A stretch of 64,000 nucleotides of DNA from an uncultured Actinomycetes bacterium (GTDB lineage Bacteria > Actinomycetota > UBA4738 > JBBDTT01). Under the pieces are notes generated by a model. The model was not told the DNA's origin and did no database searches. It worked only from the letters and a program-made list of their open reading frames with translations. A program made the position numbers and the translations under genes. Positions 2 to 5,748 of this stretch are shown piece by piece (within the stretch, counting starts at the first letter, position 1; each line of letters starts with the position of its first letter). Location of the stretch: the NCBI GenBank assembly GCA_963742735.1, contig CAVUMN010000004.1, positions 1,376,001 through 1,440,000 on the forward strand, written 5' to 3'.

Positions 2-538
2 CGGCATCACATCCACGACATGTTCGAGGCGCTGCGCAGAATCCCCCAGCCGACGATCGCGAGCGTGTTCGGCTTCGCCCTCGGCGGCGGCTTCGAGCTC
101 GCCCTGTCGTGCGACCTGATCGTCGCCGCCGACGACGCCAAACTCGGGGTTCCCGAGGTCCGCGTGGGGATCATCCCGGGGGGCGGCGGCACCCAGATGC
201 TGCCCCGCAAGGCGGGACTCTCACGCGCCAAGGACCTGATCTTCACCGCTCGCCAGGTCACCGCCGACGACGCCGCGGCGATGGGCGTCGTGGCCCGCGT
301 CGTCTCGCGCGCCGACCTCGAGGCCGAGACCATGAAGCTCGCCGGCGAGATCACCGCAAACTCGCCGGTCGCCGTGCGCCAGGCGAAGCTCGCCATCGAC
401 CAGGGCTTCGACGTCCCCCTCGAGGAAGCCATCGACATCGAAGGGCAGGCCTGGCGGCACGCGGTCGACTCGAAGGACCGGGCCGAGGGCATCGCCGCCT
501 TCGTCGAGAAACGCACGCCCGGCTGGTCGGGGGAGTGA
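2..538 (+). CDS. Enoyl-CoA hydratase/isomerase (crotonase) family protein, 5'-truncated by window edge
   Basis: Crotonase motifs GFALGGGFELALSCD and PEVRVGIIPGGGGTQ, C-terminal EGIAAFVEKR; frame is open to the window start. Confidence 0.92.
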   Translation, partial: RHHIHDMFEALRRIPQPTIASVFGFALGGGFELALSCDLIVAADDAKLGVPEVRVGIIPGGGGTQMLPRKAGLSRAKDLIFTARQVTADDAAAMGVVARVVSRADLEAETMKLAGEITANSPVAVRQAKLAIDQGFDVPLEEAIDIEGQAWRHAVDSKDRAEGIAAFVEKRTPGWSGE

Positions 539-665
539 GTCCCGCCGGACGGTGACATACATCACCCTTCACTTCCACCTACGGAGGGCGTAGCGTGGAG
601 GTAAGCGACGTCATCGAGGCGCCGCCCATGCGCTCGCCGGTCACGGCGAGGAGAGGGGGGCAGCA

Positions 666-839
666 ATGGCGGCGAAGAAGATCACGCCGGCGGACGCGGC
701 CAGCAAGAAGGTGTCGGCTGCTTCCACCAAGGCCACGAAGACGGTCCGTGCTGCGCGCGCGACCCGAGCCACGCGCGCCACTCGTGCCACGCGCGCGGGA
801 TGGGTCGACAACCACAACGAGACTCTGATCTCGGGCTGA
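666..839 (+). CDS. Small basic peptide (57 aa) with RAT tripeptide repeats and C-terminal NHNETL motif
   Basis: Read by hand (below ORF-track cutoff): MAAKKITPADAASKKVSAASTKATKTVRAARATRATRATRATRAGWVDNHNETLISG*; strong SD GAGGAGAGGGGG upstream of ATG 666. Confidence 0.75.
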   Translation: MAAKKITPADAASKKVSAASTKATKTVRAARATRATRATRATRAGWVDNHNETLISG

Positions 840-1672
840 TCACGAGCGGACAGGCTCTCGCGACGCCGCAGTTGGAGGTCGCGCACTGCCGCGCGGTGCG
901 CCTGCGCGACGAGGGCCAATATCCGGAGGCCTGGGAGGCGTTCGAAGTCGCGCTCGGTCTGGTCGACGAGGTGGATGCGGGTCCGCTCGTTGTCGCCTCG
1001 CTTCTGAACGATCTAGGCGTGCTCGGCAAGTACTCGGGGCGGTTCGACGAAGGCGAGCAGGCCTACCGCCGTGCTCTCGGCCTGGCGGAGGCCGATCCCG
1101 GCGGCGCTCCCCTGGTTGCGACGCTGCTCCACAACCTTGGCGGTCTGGATCACGCACGCGGAGATCTCGCTCGGGCGGAGCCGCTGGCGCGTCAAGGGCT
1201 CGAGATGCGTATCGCGCTGCTCGGTCCTGATGACCCCGCGGTGGCCGCGGACCGAGCCGCGCTGGCCCCCATCCTCGACGGGCTCGGCCGGGCGGACGAG
1301 GCCGAGGAATTGCTTTCCCAGGCGCTCCAGGCGTTCGAGTCCGCGGGGATGGCCAATGACCTCGACGCCGCCGTGGCCCTGCACAATCTGGCGGCCCTCC
1401 GCCACCGGCGGGGCGACCGGGAGGCGGCCGAGACGCTCTACCGCGAGGCCCTCGTCGCCAAGGAAGGCGTTCTGGGGAGGGATCACCCGGAGCTCGCGAT
1501 CACCTTGGTGAACCTTGGGGTGCTTCTCGCCGAGACGGGCCGAGCCGTCGCAGCGGCGAAGCGCCTGCGACACGCGATCCGCCTGCTGGAGGGGAACGTC
1601 GCGGACGACCACCCGACGCTTCTGGCCGCAACCGCCCGTCTCGAATGCATCGCGGGTGAACGGACGACCTGA
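836..1672 (+). CDS. Tetratricopeptide-repeat protein (kinesin-light-chain-like TPRs), no catalytic domain
   Basis: Repeats ASLLNDLG, ATLLHNLG, AVALHNLA, AITLVNLG and LGxDHP; start uncertain (CTG 836 overlapping the peptide stop, TTG 872, GTG 896, or ATG 800). Confidence 0.85.
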   Translation: MITSGQALATPQLEVAHCRAVRLRDEGQYPEAWEAFEVALGLVDEVDAGPLVVASLLNDLGVLGKYSGRFDEGEQAYRRALGLAEADPGGAPLVATLLHNLGGLDHARGDLARAEPLARQGLEMRIALLGPDDPAVAADRAALAPILDGLGRADEAEELLSQALQAFESAGMANDLDAAVALHNLAALRHRRGDREAAETLYREALVAKEGVLGRDHPELAITLVNLGVLLAETGRAVAAAKRLRHAIRLLEGNVADDHPTLLAATARLECIAGERTT

Positions 1673-1694
1673 GCGCCTCGGCTACGCTCACGTC

Positions 1695-2600
1695 GTGCCA
1701 GAGCCCTTGTCGATCCCAAACCGCGTCACCGTCCGCGAGGTCGGCCCTCGCGACGGCCTCCAGGCGGAGGACCCCATTCCCGTCGAGGGGCGCGTCCGGT
1801 TGATCGACGCGCTCTCGGTCTCCGGCGTCACCAAGATCGAGGCCGTGTCGTTCGTCTCGCCCAAGGCGGTTCCGGCGATGGCCGGTGCGGCCGAGGTGAT
1901 GGCCGGGATCACTCGAAGCGAGAGCGTGCAGTACTCGGCGCTCGTCCCGAACCGTCGCGGGGCCGAGGCCGGGGTCGAGGCCGGCGCGGACGCCCTCACC
2001 GCGTTCCTGGCCGCGAGCGACGGCTACAACCGCAAGAACGTCGGCAAGTCCGTCCAGGAGTCCGTGGCCGACGTCGCCGAGGTCGTCGCCGTGGCCCGCG
2101 AGGCCGGCCTCCCGATCGAGGCCACGATCTCCAGCGCGTTCGGCGACCCCTACGAGGGCCAGGTAACGCCGGAGCGCGTGGCCGAGGTCGCGGGGTGGCT
2201 GGCCGACGCCGGCGTCGAGGCCTTCTCCCTCGGCGACACCACCGGCATGGCCAGCCCGACGCGTATCACCGCAGTCGTCGAGCTCCTCCGCGAGCGGCTC
2301 CCGGATCACCGGCTCAACCTCCACCTCCACGACACCCGCGGCGCCGCCATGGCCAACGCACTCGCCGGCCTGCAGGCGGGCGTGACGGAGTTCGACGCGT
2401 CGATCGGCGGGCTCGGCGGATCGCCCTTCGCCCCCGCCGCGGGCGGCAACCTGGCCACCGAGGACTTCGTCCACCTGCTCCACGACATGGGCGTGCAGAC
2501 CGGACTCGACCCGACGAAGCTGCTCGAGGCGGCGGAGATCGCCCGAGAGCTCGTCGGCCACGACCTCTGGAGCCACCTGCCCAGGTCCGGCCCCCGGTAG
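1695..2600 (+). CDS. Hydroxymethylglutaryl-CoA lyase family protein
   Basis: EVGPRDGLQ, SLGDTTG, HLHDTRG, GNLATED; GTG start 6 nt after a TACGCT -10 box. Confidence 0.92.
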   Translation: MPEPLSIPNRVTVREVGPRDGLQAEDPIPVEGRVRLIDALSVSGVTKIEAVSFVSPKAVPAMAGAAEVMAGITRSESVQYSALVPNRRGAEAGVEAGADALTAFLAASDGYNRKNVGKSVQESVADVAEVVAVAREAGLPIEATISSAFGDPYEGQVTPERVAEVAGWLADAGVEAFSLGDTTGMASPTRITAVVELLRERLPDHRLNLHLHDTRGAAMANALAGLQAGVTEFDASIGGLGGSPFAPAAGGNLATEDFVHLLHDMGVQTGLDPTKLLEAAEIARELVGHDLWSHLPRSGPR

Positions 2601-2631: not shown

Positions 2632-5600
2632 ATGCCGACCTGTCCCACGTGTGGCGTCGATCTTCCGGAGGGCGCGCGGTTCTGTCCGAGCTGCGGGTCG
2701 GCCGTGCCGACCGAGGTCGGGACCGAGGAGCGCAAGCTCGTCACGGTCGTGTTCGCCGACCTGGTCGACTCCACCGGGCTCACGCAGCGGCTCGACCCCG
2801 AGCGGGCGCGGGAGGTCATCGGGGCCTACTACGAGCTCGCGTCGGCCGAGCTCGCCTCGCTGCGGGGCCGCGCCGAGAAGTTCATCGGCGACGCGGTCAT
2901 GGCGGTGTTCGGGCTGCCCACCGTGCACGAGGACGACGCGGTCCGGGCGATCCGCGCGTCGCTCGCCATCCGCGACCGAACCCGAAAGCTCGGACCCGAG
3001 CTGGGGCTTCCGTTCGAGCTGGACGTCCACGTCGGGGTGGCCTCGGGCGCTGTCGCCTCGGGCGTCAGCCCGGCCGGCCAGCTGCTCGCGACCGGCCCGA
3101 CGGTCAACCTGGCGGCGCGCCTGCAGGACGCGGCCGCGCCGGGCGAGGTCCTCGCGTCCGAGACGACGGTCGAGCTCACCCGGAACTCCGTCGAGTTCGG
3201 CGAGCCGCGGATGATCGAGGCCGCGGGGTTCGACGCGCCGGTGCGCGCGTACCCCGTGGTCCGGCTGGCGGCGAGCCGGTCGCGGCGAACCATCCCGCTG
3301 ATCGGGCGCCGCTCGGAGCTCTCCCTGCTCGAGGAGACGTACCGGCGCGCGATCCGGAACAAGCGCGCGCACCTGTTCACCCTCCTCGGTGAGCCGGGGA
3401 TCGGCAAGAGCCGCCTGGTCCAGGAGTTCGTCTCGGGTCTGGGCGAGGACGTGACGGTCCTCACCGGCCGCGCGGTGTCGTGGGGCGGCGAGGTCACCTT
3501 CTGGCCGCTGGTCGAGATGCTCCGCGCCGAGGCGGGGATCCACGAGGACGACTCGGTCGCGGTCATCCGGGAGCGGCTGGAAGAGCTCGCCGAGGGGTGC
3601 TGCACGCGCGACGAGGCGCAGCAGGTCGCGGCCCAGCTGGCCCTGGCCCTCGGGGTCGGCGAGGAGGACACCGAGCGACAGTTCCTGCAGCAGGAGGTCC
3701 AGGCCGGGTTCCGGCGTCTCCTGGAGGGGCTCGGCGCCCGGGGTCCGCTGGCACTGGTCTTCGAGGACCTCCACGCGGCCCAGCCGGCGTTCCTCGACCT
3801 GATCGAGCACGCCGTCCTGCGCGTGAAGGGGATCCCCCTGTTCGTGTTGTCGGTGGCCCGTGAGGACCTCCTCGAGGACCGCCCGGGCTGGGGCGGAGGT
3901 CGCGCGGACGCCGTGACCCTGCACCTCGACCCCCTCGACCCCGAGGCCAGCGCCGAGCTCGCCCGCGAATCGGCCGGCGAGGAGCTCGACGATCTGACGG
4001 TCCGTCAGATCGCGGAGCGCACCGGCGGCAACCCGTTCTTCATCGTGGAGACCACCGGCATGCTCCTGCACGAGGGTCGCGAGGGGATGGCGCAGTCGGT
4101 GCTCCCGGCGACCGTCCATGCGGTCGTCGCTTCCCGGCTGGATCACCTCTCCGAGCCGGCGAGGGAGCTCGCCCGCAAGATGTCGGTGTTCCGGCCGCCC
4201 GTGGACCCCTCGGAGCTGGCCCTCGTCACCGACGTCTCCGACGAGGCGCTGGCCGAGCTCGAGCAGGAGGAGGTGCTGGTCCACGACGAGGGCGACCTCA
4301 CCCAGTGGCGGTTCCGCCACCAGGTCCTGCGCGACGTCGCGTACGAGTCCCTGCCGAAGCGGGAGCGCCAGCGGCTGCACCTGGCGGTCGCCGACGAGCT
4401 GATTGCCCGGGGCCTGCAGCCCCGCTATCCACAGGCCATCGCCTATCACCTGGAGCACGCCGCCCGGGCGAGCCTGGACCTGAACCCCGCCGACCGAGTC
4501 CTCGCCGACCGTGCCGTGGAGGCCCTCGGCGAGGCGGGGGATCGCCTCCGGCGGCGGATGGAGCTTCGCAGCGCGATCGACCTCTACCTCCGCGGGTTGG
4601 CCCTGGCCGGGCCGAAGGAGTCGTGGGGAGCGCGAGAGGCGGGGATGCTCGCCGGCATCGGCGAGTCGCAGTACTGGCTGGCCGAGTACGACCCGGCCCG
4701 CGAGCACCTGACGCGGGCCCTGGAGATCGGCGCCGGCTCGGACCGGGTCGTGGCGCATGCCGCCCGGTTCCTGGCGGACATCGTTTTGAACGTGGACGCG
4801 GACATCGAGGCCGCCGAGCGGCTGTTCACCCAGGCCCGCGAGGCGGCGGACCGCTACGGCGACCCGTACGTGATCGCCCGGGTCCGGCTGATGTCCGCTT
4901 GGGTGCCTTCGTGGCGAGGAGACCCGGGGACCGCGGAGAAGGAGTGGCGCGAGGTGGTCGAGCTCGCCCGCGAGCACGGCGACAAGTGGGCTGAGGCCCG
5001 TGCGCTGGCCAACCTGTGCTCGGCGAACTCCGCGGCCGGCGACGAGCGCGAGGCGATGGAGTTCGCGTCGGAGGCGCTGCGACTGGGCGAGGAGATGGGC
5101 GACCGGTTCACCGTCGCGGTGGCCCGGCAGTTCCTCGGCAACTCCTACCGGCGGATGGGCCGGCACGCCGAGGCGCTCGAGATGTTCTCCGCGGCGATCC
5201 GCGCCTTCGAGGACCTGGGCGCGCGGTGGGAGCAGGGCGCCGCGCTCGCCGATCGCGGCGAGGTTCGGCTGTTCACGGACGACCTTCGCGGCGCCGAGCG
5301 GGACTACCGCGAGGCCCTGTCGATCATGACCGCCCTCGACGAGCGCGGGTACCTCGGGTTCATCCACGAGGAGCTCGCGGTCCTGGCCGCCATGGAGGGC
5401 GACTGGCCGAGAGCCGAGACGCACCTGGAGCGCGCCGAGCGGATGGAGATCACCGGCGACCTGTTCAGCCGGGCCGGGCCCCTGGAGACGAAGGCCGAGC
5501 TGGCACTGCTCAAGGGGGACCGGGCGGCGGCGCTCGCCGCGACGCGCGAGGCCCTCGAGCTGCTCCGCCAGAGCGCGTACCGAAACCGCCACGCGGTCTC

Positions 5601-5748
5601 GCTGCTCCGGGCCGCGAACCGGTTCGGCGCGGACGCCGTCGGTGGCGAGGCCGAGGTGGCCGACGCCCGCGAACGCCTGGAGCGCGCCGGCTGGGTGATG
5701 CCCCCCGACCCGGTGGCGCGGGCGGCGAACGCCGAACCGGCACCGTGA
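2632..5748 (+). CDS. Zinc-ribbon / class III nucleotide cyclase / AAA ATPase / TPR signalling protein
   Basis: N-terminal CxxC...CxxC; cyclase motifs FADLVDST, KFIGDAVM, VNLAARLQ; Walker A GEPGIGKS, Walker B LVFEDLH; GGNPFF; TPR-like C-terminus. Confidence 0.9.
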   Translation: MPTCPTCGVDLPEGARFCPSCGSAVPTEVGTEERKLVTVVFADLVDSTGLTQRLDPERAREVIGAYYELASAELASLRGRAEKFIGDAVMAVFGLPTVHEDDAVRAIRASLAIRDRTRKLGPELGLPFELDVHVGVASGAVASGVSPAGQLLATGPTVNLAARLQDAAAPGEVLASETTVELTRNSVEFGEPRMIEAAGFDAPVRAYPVVRLAASRSRRTIPLIGRRSELSLLEETYRRAIRNKRAHLFTLLGEPGIGKSRLVQEFVSGLGEDVTVLTGRAVSWGGEVTFWPLVEMLRAEAGIHEDDSVAVIRERLEELAEGCCTRDEAQQVAAQLALALGVGEEDTERQFLQQEVQAGFRRLLEGLGARGPLALVFEDLHAAQPAFLDLIEHAVLRVKGIPLFVLSVAREDLLEDRPGWGGGRADAVTLHLDPLDPEASAELARESAGEELDDLTVRQIAERTGGNPFFIVETTGMLLHEGREGMAQSVLPATVHAVVASRLDHLSEPARELARKMSVFRPPVDPSELALVTDVSDEALAELEQEEVLVHDEGDLTQWRFRHQVLRDVAYESLPKRERQRLHLAVADELIARGLQPRYPQAIAYHLEHAARASLDLNPADRVLADRAVEALGEAGDRLRRRMELRSAIDLYLRGLALAGPKESWGAREAGMLAGIGESQYWLAEYDPAREHLTRALEIGAGSDRVVAHAARFLADIVLNVDADIEAAERLFTQAREAADRYGDPYVIARVRLMSAWVPSWRGDPGTAEKEWREVVELAREHGDKWAEARALANLCSANSAAGDEREAMEFASEALRLGEEMGDRFTVAVARQFLGNSYRRMGRHAEALEMFSAAIRAFEDLGARWEQGAALADRGEVRLFTDDLRGAERDYREALSIMTALDERGYLGFIHEELAVLAAMEGDWPRAETHLERAERMEITGDLFSRAGPLETKAELALLKGDRAAALAATREALELLRQSAYRNRHAVSLLRAANRFGADAVGGEAEVADARERLERAGWVMPPDPVARAANAEPAP

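Follow-up and report, generated by a model that had tools for sequence, protein, structure and literature searches.

Among described proteins built from tetratricopeptide repeats (TPRs), BKLC of Prosthecobacter, a bacterial relative of the kinesin light chains, is linked to bacterial tubulin genes. Chaperones of the SycD/LcrH type are small, all-TPR cytoplasmic proteins whose groove takes up a stretch of an exported substrate in extended form, and Rap proteins, like the TPR protein described here, have no DNA-binding domain. Rap-Phr pairs belong to the RRNPP systems, which have been described as a feature of Bacillota (PMC10075063), and multi-copy propeptides are known from RRNPPA systems (PMC11343458). 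Here we analyze a two-gene locus in a 64,000-nucleotide stretch of an uncultured Actinomycetes bacterium (GCA_963742735.1, contig CAVUMN010000004.1, positions 1,376,001 to 1,440,000 of the forward strand; hereafter the window), in which a 57-residue open reading frame (ORF) with an N-H-N-E-T motif near its end stands beside a gene for a protein consisting of TPRs alone. We find that the NHNET motif is confined almost wholly to the same-strand vicinity of one family of ~280-residue TPR proteins that resemble kinesin light chains (KLC) and occur in several phyla. The pairing is apparently undescribed so far: a literature search on NHNET-type motifs, on TPR proteins with precursor peptides, and on actinobacterial RRNPP systems, with subscription journals and supplements outside its scope, returned nothing relevant. 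The parts of the two genes are as follows.

666–839, plus strand: gene for the 57-residue NHNET precursor peptide, stop included, with an ATG start, taken from the ORF list
648–660, plus strand: Shine-Dalgarno-like purine-rich stretch, with 5 nt between its end and the ATG at 666
666–797, plus strand: leader-like basic, non-hydrophobic region, residues 1–44 (KKITP, a Lys/Ala/Thr-rich part, then RAT repeats)
798–836, plus strand: putative docking unit G45–G57 (GWVDNHNETLISG), comprising the predicted interface residues and fitting the 196-unit family consensus
810–824, plus strand: N-H-N-E-T core, inside the docking unit
800–1672, plus strand: TPR-only, KLC-like protein, drawn as the longest ORF from the ATG at 800 and identified by Pfam, alignments, and an AlphaFold2 (AF2) model

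Pairing of NHNET units with one TPR family

Locus counts were taken from a scan of one genome per species for the TPR signature HNL[GA]GL[EAD]H[AS]R, which returned 469 stretches, 468 of them confirmed by tblastn; the best 80 of these 468 loci (487,882 bp) were read in six frames. On the strand of the TPR gene the pattern N.N[EQ][ST] occurred 196 times over 61 loci, compared with once on the opposite strand, and the strict form NHNE[ST] occurred 138 times over 46 loci, compared with none. Among the 19 loci without the pattern, 7 carried variant units (QHNET, NHSET, NTNEE, NDNEI, etc.) and 3 had fewer than 310 bp upstream of the TPR gene. The best 80 loci come from soil Acidobacteriota (mainly Blastocatellia and Pyrinomonadaceae), from Actinomycetota (Streptomyces, Actinomadura, Asanoa, Dactylosporangium, Cryptosporangium, Gaiellaceae, Solirubrobacteraceae, and Acidimicrobiia), and from Chloroflexota, Heliobacteriaceae-labelled metagenome-assembled genomes (MAGs), Verrucomicrobiota, Rokubacteria, and the myxobacterium Minicystis rosea. 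Family loci thus defined occur in at least six phyla, cultured Streptomyces, Actinomadura, Asanoa, and Dactylosporangium included. Among the cultured carriers are Streptomyces cellostaticus DSM 40189, Asanoa hainanensis CGMCC 4.5593, Actinomadura barringtoniae GKU 128, Dactylosporangium sp. CA-092794, and Minicystis rosea DSM 24000.

Among kin the TPR family is rare: with the window's own genome counted, 3 of 61 relatives have it, as do 3 of 294 members of the class and 6 of 401 genomes sampled from the phylum. In five of the six loci of the phylum sample, the TPR strand has an ORF with units in which three variable residues precede N-x-N-E-[ST]. Genome G012 encodes two repeat proteins with acidic linkers; G343 has a Lys-rich N-terminus followed by six units with basic linkers; G398 encodes a 38-residue product in which a Sec-like leader ending ...AEA is followed by RLATNHNETIR; and the unpublished genome G006 shows the order major facilitator superfamily (MFS) transporter, TPR, precursor, with acidic linkers. 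The window's genome has one motif and one TPR of the family. The preliminary description of this DNA, made from its letters alone, would have been contradicted by a lack of homologous peptides next to TPR homologues; the units in 61 of 80 loci and in five of six phylum-sample TPR genomes show that such peptides exist. It had also mentioned NHNET-ending small proteins near TPR and CHAT genes of actinobacteria. The TPR part is real; the CHAT part is not borne out, as no CHAT gene occurs among the neighbor clusters common to at least four loci, where no search aimed at CHAT was made.

For the reverse direction, metagenome contigs were scanned for DNA encoding NHNET[LF]V[RS], which gave at least 125 stretches, and 77 loci were read. 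Among the matches listed, a family TPR (at least 100 bits) was present in 28 of the 77 loci, always on the peptide strand (28/28), and in 18 of the 35 loci that have at least 1100 bp downstream. About five of the 17 TPR-less loci are likely chance matches in long or low-complexity frames (L144, L153, L159, L160, and L162); elsewhere among the TPR-less loci an IS110 transposase (L179) or a Uma2 nuclease (L161) comes after the unit. These counts indicate that the link between peptide and TPR is strong but not absolute. We conclude that the pairing is real and widespread.

Precursor types, signal peptides, and cleavage sites were assigned by visual inspection. The consensus of the 196 units reads G at –5 and –4, L, I, or W at –3, then N, H (79%), N, E (88%) or Q, T (96%), [LV], [VL], [RS], and D, and a locus holds from 1 to 13 units. 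In a more general form the motif is G-x, one hydrophobic residue, x-x, and N-H-N-E-T-[LV]-[VLI]. Single units lie right behind Sec-like leaders in an Acidimicrobiia MAG (three genes, ...AHA-GWTNHNETLVRPK and kin), Rokubacteria, Verrucomicrobia, and Solirubrobacteraceae, or follow Lys-rich, non-hydrophobic N-termini in five tandem genes of an Acidipila MAG, in Asanoa, and in the window; 6 of 13 aligned single-unit relatives have Sec-like leaders. In multi-unit precursors each unit comes after a double-glycine-like site (…ELDGIKGG, …VKAG, …VRAG) or an EEVIAP-type spacer, and some of these precursors contain Cys pairs within a variable segment of 10–15 residues. GG, AG, or KAG stands right before the unit in many precursors, and the R-A-G that precedes W46 in the window resembles the [KR]-A-G sites of its relatives. 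Linkers between units range from strongly acidic to strongly basic, and a single TPR can accompany precursors of up to 11 different units or variable segments (L083, L044). Against curated leader models the relatives gave only sub-threshold matches (lant_leader_L1a, 16.1 bits with a cut-off of 22; Bacteriocin_IIc, 10 bits with a cut-off of 27.1), and the window peptide matched none of the double-glycine or lanthipeptide leader models of Pfam and NCBIfam.

Two MAGs each hold two cassettes, every one with its own TPR: L027 and L052 in a member of Blastocatellales, and L065 and L083 in a member of Solirubrobacteraceae. The precursor types in the Blastocatellales MAG clearly differ, that of L027 being Cys-rich and of the GG type and that of L052 of the EEVIAP type.

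Predicted docking in the TPR groove

Pfam and NCBIfam assign TPR families alone to the 266–290-residue window protein (TPR_12, 116.8 bits with a cut-off of 30.1; TPR_10, 84.1 bits with a cut-off of 27.5), as the preliminary description had said; no other domain was found with these libraries, including a helix-turn-helix (HTH) or a Rap-type N-terminal effector module. The AF2 model has 14 helices and a confidence (pLDDT) of 97.7. A profile search of the PDB placed the protein closest to the KLC1 TPR domain (7ai4, E = 1e-57) and to the bacterial KLC-like protein BKLC (5o01, E = 2.7e-27), and the top Foldseek matches of the model were KLC1 and KLC2, several with a cargo peptide in the concave groove (6fuz, 6fv0, 3zfw, 6swu); LGN/Pins, OGT, and designed TPRs were also listed. 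No RRNPP receptor (Rap, NprR, PlcR, or PrgX) appeared among the listed PDB-profile and Foldseek matches. The earlier likening to RRNPP-type receptors is not upheld: the protein has its closest solved counterparts in kinesin light chains, shows no homology to RRNPP receptors among the listed matches and no effector domain, and, judged by sequence and fold, is not a member of the RRNPP family. Its best NCBIfam match, the TPR protein of the FxSxx-COOH system (NF040586), scored 83.2 bits against a cut-off of 300 and covers only profile positions 472–730 of 830. Homologues from low-GC taxa are 278–302 residues long, all TPR, with N-termini that are not hydrophobic. The TPR proteins of four Pyrinomonadaceae/Blastocatellia loci (L059, L063, L092, and L105) have one hydrophobic N-terminal membrane helix, and the precursors at these loci have Sec-like leaders and Cys pairs.

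We predicted the complex of the TPR protein (75-row alignment) with the 57-mer (13-row alignment). The interface score ipSAE was 0.85, 0.86, and 0.84, compared with 0.02, 0.02, and 0.01 for controls; the mark applied to this score is reached by 116 of 157 solved complexes and by 2 of 215 mismatched pairs, a calibration that holds only roughly here because analysis-specific alignments were used. At least 62% of contacts were common to the runs, with a partner pLDDT of 49–51. The predicted interface comprises peptide residues 45–57 only, laid along the whole groove, while the leader region 1–44 stays outside. This is the segment that the preliminary description had named as ligand or processed core, and the prediction of peptide plus TPR that it called for thus speaks for its view. 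On the TPR side the unit is predicted to contact N46, K53, H87, N88, G91, L92, H94, N172, and N214 (numbered from position 872); seven of these nine are invariant in the family alignment, and N46 and N172 are nearly so. Variation between loci points the same way. Groove position 164 is Tyr in 41 of the 49 loci whose unit has the His, compared with 2 of the 15 whose unit does not (there Pro, Arg, or His is found), and at position 123 an Asp, Glu, His, or Gln stands in 36/49 and 1/15, respectively. This covariation offers partly independent support for groove docking, as far as alignments can tell. Taken as a structural prediction, docking of the NHNET unit in the TPR groove is well supported.

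The window genes, their insertion, and their neighbors

The ORF at 666–839 very probably is a real gene. Its motif is the only strict occurrence in six frames of the 3.08-Mb genome and is therefore not a chance match, and its unit, G-W-V-D-N-H-N-E-T-L-I-S-G-stop, matches all conserved positions of the family. The four residues between Thr and stop are the commonest tail length among precursors, and the stop TGA (837–839) comes directly after GWVDNHNETLISG. Twelve single-unit precursors of other phyla align with the peptide, with N49, H50, N51, and E52 invariant. The rival view that GC-rich DNA has left the ORF open by chance next to the gene of a stand-alone repeat protein can draw on the fact that all six frames are open over 580–1030 in the ORF list, on the lack of a homologue in protein databases (none of 864 candidates at E ≤ 1 in a word-index search of 5.8 billion proteins), and on an ESM Atlas search that gave no lead, with a low top score of 0.77. 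Against it stand the single occurrence of the motif and its strand bias of 196:1, conservation of the unit as amino acids across phyla with differing codons, the Shine-Dalgarno stretch, an in-frame G+C content at third codon positions (GC3) of 0.83, and a predicted interface that falls exactly on conserved residues; we find this view hardly credible. Antisense coding of the repeat region was also ruled out, given that the differences between repeat units are synonymous in the plus frame and that the motif has the strand bias just mentioned.

Other searches with the peptide were equally sparse. No model of Pfam-A (2025) or NCBIfam 20 covers it or the related peptides, and a 104-residue repeat protein of G012 gave 4542 candidates in the same word index, with none at E ≤ 0.01. 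Against the 61 related genomes the window peptide returned low-complexity noise only, except for a RAT-repeat paralogue in the same genus (E = 0.0056). No hydrophobic segment was seen in the peptide. A scan of 400–1900 found no sigma-70-like promoter site, and its three terminator-like matches lie on the minus strand within the ORF and are not meaningful. Among sequencing runs listed for the locus none is of RNA, and one run of soil DNA contains 0.18 of the sampled words. Standard annotation misses small precursor genes of the NHNET type.

Several observations of the preliminary description were confirmed on inspection: the 57-residue ORF with its strong ribosome-binding site, the RAA-RAT-RAT-RAT-RAT-RAG repeats in varied codons (CGT GCT GCG/CGC GCG ACC/CGA GCC ACG/CGC GCC ACT/CGT GCC ACG/CGC GCG GGA), and the overlap of the peptide stop with a CTG (836–838) that is in frame with the TPR ORF. 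As possible starts the TPR frame offers ATG 800, CTG 836, TTG 872, and GTG 896, with the family-wide conserved core beginning at ~896, and low-GC homologues use an ATG that lies from 14 nt before to 60 nt after the precursor stop; ATG 800 and TTG 872 therefore fit equally well, and CTG 836 is unsupported.

The two genes lie within a putative operon of coenzyme A (CoA) metabolism:

2–538, plus strand: enoyl-CoA hydratase, 3' part, a flank outside the system (ECH_1, 161 bits; NF005802, 204.6 bits)
539–1694, plus strand: the inserted two-gene cassette, between the hydratase stop (536–538) and the lyase start (GTG 1695)
1695–2600, plus strand: 3-hydroxy-3-methylglutaryl (HMG)-CoA lyase, a flank outside the system (NF004283, 340.5 bits, cut-off 246)

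In 10 of 12 relatives that have the HMG-CoA lyase (E ≤ 1e-60), the same-genus genome G001 among them, the hydratase directly abuts the lyase. The remaining two are G017, with a different insert of ~1.1 kb at the junction, and a relative that has no hydratase in the locus. Codons ending in T make up 12.1% of the peptide ORF and 12.0% of the TPR gene, compared with 1.7%, 2.6%, and 3.4% in the three flanking genes, and GC3 is 0.82–0.83 in the cassette genes and 0.93–0.94 in the flanks. Because the junction is intact in relatives and the codon usage is atypical, we hold firmly, on the strength of gene order and composition, that the pair represents an insertion between hydratase and lyase, in keeping with what had been claimed for both the synteny and the T-ending codons. 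In a quick tree of 75 TPR rows the window protein sits on a long branch beside Thermoleophilia rows and apart from same-order G012 (support 89), a position consistent with transfer, if not decisive.

The insert of G017 (L117:420-1500), a genome from another family of the order, contains one long ORF, and the hydratase/lyase junction may be an insertion hot spot. In the TPR tree, Heliobacteriaceae-labelled rows interleave with Blastocatellia and one Verrucomicrobiia row falls within a Limnocylindrales clade, which reflects either frequent cassette transfer or mis-binned MAG contigs. Just after the lyase, 2632–5748 encodes a 1038-residue protein with a zinc ribbon and adenylate/guanylate cyclase-like, ATPase, and TPR regions, with partial matches to TOMM_kin_cyc (173 bits, cut-off 706) and HaaT TPR (75 bits). 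We rejected the labels FxSxx, HaaT, and TOMM for the system, since the scores lie far under the cut-offs.

The N-terminal part of the peptide has relatives within the genus. Residues 4–44 are 48% identical (pairwise E = 3e-5, with a low-complexity caveat) to a 91-residue protein on contig C3 of the same genome, KKIQP…(KAVRAT)n(RAT)n, which is very basic, has no NHNET motif, and matches no family. Its orthologue in G001 is 72% identical, and the window ORF and the G001 repeat-protein gene begin with 24 nt that are almost the same. In both genomes this gene comes after those for a zinc-ribbon protein and an 842-residue M50 intramembrane metalloprotease with two cyclic nucleotide monophosphate (cNMP)-binding domains. 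By these resemblances, the window precursor may be chimeric, with a basic leader-like module that was already resident and an NHNET unit that was acquired. The M50 beside the G343 precursor, encoded divergently from it, is 37% identical to the C3 M50-cNMP protease. The latter is probably the likeliest processing enzyme in this genome, because the window leader is related to the small protein encoded beside it. The three genes form a conserved group (L108:23-3171 on contig C3; orthologous set L008) of the daptide_HExxH-like 842-residue M50, a 69-residue zinc-ribbon protein, and the 91-residue KAVRAT/RAT protein; the last may itself be a protease substrate or precursor.

All flank ORFs were clustered for a survey of neighbors, with counts over 85 or 80 loci. 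An M50 metalloprotease adjoins the cassette in 12 of 85 loci; an HlyD match follows it in 9 of the 12 and occurs in one further locus (L099), and M50-HlyD fusions lie directly after the TPR gene in Blastocatellia (Acidobacteriota) and Heliobacteria. These M50 proteins match daptide_HExxH at 169 bits (cut-off 300) and a RiPP_HExxH_LiaK/YydH-type model, also below its cut-off (225), and the fusion proteins have a weak PqqD-like region N-terminal to the M50 domain. An MFS match was present in 16 of 85 loci, all actinobacterial, mostly between precursor and TPR and overlapping the TPR start. Ser/Thr kinases (21 loci) and extracytoplasmic function (ECF) sigma factors (6–10 loci) were confined to Acidobacteriota-type loci. 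In Dactylosporangium sp. CA-092794 (L097:1384-3903) the MFS and TPR matches share one frame with no stop between them; the two may be fused into one exporter-TPR protein, and the TPR would then be linked with export. It is one case only, in GC-rich DNA, where long open frames abound. Next to the cassette in four loci whose units have a conserved Trp (L034, L040, L047, and L056, e.g. L056:3912-5117) lies a di-haem oxidoreductase (DHOR, E = 5.5e-37), and an HTTM/SdpB-like membrane protein with a DUF5819-like neighbor lies upstream in three (e.g. L032:820-2405); both are candidate modifying enzymes of sub-families.

Proposed role and comparison with known systems

We favor, at a probability of roughly 0.55, the reading that the 57-residue ORF and the TPR gene form a cognate docking cassette inserted in a CoA-metabolism operon; the ribosomal peptide would be exported, and a TPR protein in the cytoplasm would read its NHNET handle. 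The precursor would be cut just before the unit, in the window after R-A-G, to yield a peptide of about 12 residues (WVDNHNETLISG) that would then be exported. The TPR protein would recognize the invariant handle and hold or present the precursor for cleavage and export, acting as a handle-reading chaperone or adaptor and not as a transcription factor. Parts missing from the window are present in relatives, namely Sec-like or double-glycine-like leaders, multi-unit precursors, the actinobacterial MFS, and the M50-HlyD fusion; here the leader would be replaced by the genus-specific basic RAT-repeat module, and the M50-cNMP protease would carry out processing. We favor handle-read export for three reasons: the handle is near-invariant across phyla while the residues preceding it are hypervariable, a single TPR has as many as 11 different units to serve, and leaders, Cys pairs, and exporters commonly accompany the pair.

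Several observations weigh against this reading. Nine of the 80 TPR loci have adequate flanks and no unit at all, and about ten real-looking metagenome precursors have no TPR within 2.5 kb. The high score of the predicted complex may partly reflect memory of solved complexes of kinesin light chains with cargo peptides. The loci lacking the unit His form about two clades, so the covariation with Tyr164 rests on those, and the window itself is an exception to it, with L164 and A123. Flank-ORF clustering found no universal third gene beside the cassette, and M50 homologues were distant or not found in five well-assembled genomes examined. No signal peptide, exporter, or protease is encoded next to the window pair, and homologues of the MFS and HlyD partners were not found in the window's genome (88.9% complete) at E ≤ 1e-8; two M50 homologues are encoded elsewhere in that genome.

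Some of the same evidence could suit quorum sensing of the Rap-Phr kind, in which the peptide would be secreted, trimmed to ~10–13 residues, re-imported, and bound by a TPR that alters a partner protein. The adjacent genes and a predicted ligand in the groove fit this, as do single-unit relatives whose Sec-like leader ends just before an 11–16-residue tail, the multi-copy propeptides known from RRNPPA systems (PMC11343458), and the paralogous cassettes with differing unit types in one MAG (L027, L052). Yet neither an HTH nor another effector domain was found in the TPR protein, its nearest PDB matches are kinesin light chains with no RRNPP receptor among those listed, and one TPR serves up to 11 variable segments, while near-invariance of N-H-N-E-T across phyla runs counter to the rapid diversification that private signals should show. 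The Cys-rich segments of 10–15 residues before the unit in some precursors also exceed the length of a groove ligand, and RRNPP is described as a Bacillota feature (PMC10075063). We regard this alternative as unlikely. A purely intracellular adaptor, with NHNET as a linear docking motif that tethers the TPR to a target of the N-terminal part, would account for a window peptide with no hydrophobic segment and no exporter nearby; the N-terminal part has a free-standing relative, a basic repeat protein without NHNET, the very basic RAT tail might bind polyanions or nucleic acid, proteins with several units would bring many TPR copies together, and kinesin light chains act in this way with cargo motifs according to PDB titles. 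The Sec-like leaders, Cys pairs, double-glycine-like sites, and exporters of many relatives nevertheless indicate an extracellular fate, and linkers that run from acidic to basic disfavor a conserved function of the non-motif parts, which leaves an adaptor of this kind quite unlikely in our judgment.

It is also conceivable that an enzyme whose gene lies elsewhere chemically modifies the unit or its preceding residues, the TPR serving as the precursor-recognition subunit of a classical ribosomally synthesized and post-translationally modified peptide (RiPP). This would agree with weak matches to the TPR partners of cyclophane RiPPs (FxSxx_TPR, 83–144 bits, and HaaT, 34 bits, all below cut-off), with the PqqD-like region ahead of M50 in the fusion proteins, and with the di-haem oxidoreductase at 4 of 85 loci and the HTTM/SdpB-like protein at 3 of 80. 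Flank clustering, which did not extend to unlinked radical-SAM or other enzymes, found no enzyme family common to more than 4 of 85 loci, and the window pair has a hydratase, a lyase, and the cyclase/ATPase/TPR protein as neighbors and no modifying enzyme, the hallmark by which RiPP clusters are recognized. We consider a classical RiPP very unlikely. Returning to handle-read export, a broader version of it is possible, and we advance it tentatively: NHNET peptides and KLC-like TPRs might constitute an unrecognized class of ribosomal peptide systems in several phyla, in which an invariant five-residue handle read by a non-enzymatic TPR replaces the logic of leader and enzyme and directs processing and export of highly variable, often multi-copy cargo, or itself serves as a cross-phylum signal, with the window as a minimal two-gene form whose leader was swapped from a resident family.

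NHNET precursors are absent from family models, yet the signature of the partner TPR identifies 468 confirmed loci among genomes taken one per species. With its dedicated reader, the five-residue handle would be a simple marker for mining a large hidden set of variable secreted peptides, and for a direct test of recognition a single synthetic 12-mer and a single soluble protein (~30 kDa) would suffice. If the peptides are bioactive or act as signals, they would represent a new natural-product family or a form of peptide communication outside Bacillota.

The locus shares features with several known systems and is identical to none. As in RRNPP/RRNPPA systems such as Rap-Phr, a small propeptide gene adjoins the gene for a cytoplasmic TPR-type binder on the same strand, with Sec-like leaders in many NHNET relatives and tandem units in some propeptides. 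In contrast to those systems, the window TPR shows no detectable homology among the listed matches and no effector domain, the NHNET motif is invariant across phyla instead of diversified, the pair occurs mostly outside Bacillota, and the peptide gene usually lies upstream of the TPR gene. Multi-core RiPP and bacteriocin precursors likewise have hypervariable segments within conserved flanks, repeated here up to 13 times per locus, and double-glycine-like sites recur in some NHNET precursors. The NHNET-adjacent HExxH proteins fused to HlyD resemble the M50 proteases of RiPP systems (daptide MpaP-like and YydH/LiaK-like) at scores below curated cut-offs. NHNET loci differ in that flank clustering found no modifying enzyme common to them and in having as their constant partner a TPR, which none of these systems requires; the window pair also has no adjacent protease or exporter. 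The FxSxx-COOH system is distinct in both components, NF040586 combining NB-ARC with TPR in ~830 residues and the window peptide not ending in FxSxx. Two relatives gave weak LcrH_SycD matches (E = 1.8e-4 and 7e-4, far below the cut-off of 104.8 bits) that recall the class II TPR chaperones, from which the NHNET system differs in having no type III secretion context and in having short peptides, not translocator proteins, as its substrates. Kinesin light chains and BKLC are closest in sequence and fold, and the prediction places the NHNET peptide, in extended form, in the corresponding groove. Unlike a kinesin light chain, the window TPR is a free-standing bacterial protein of ~280 residues, with no heptad region and no motor, and its putative ligand is encoded next to it and has its own invariant motif, N-H-N-E-T.

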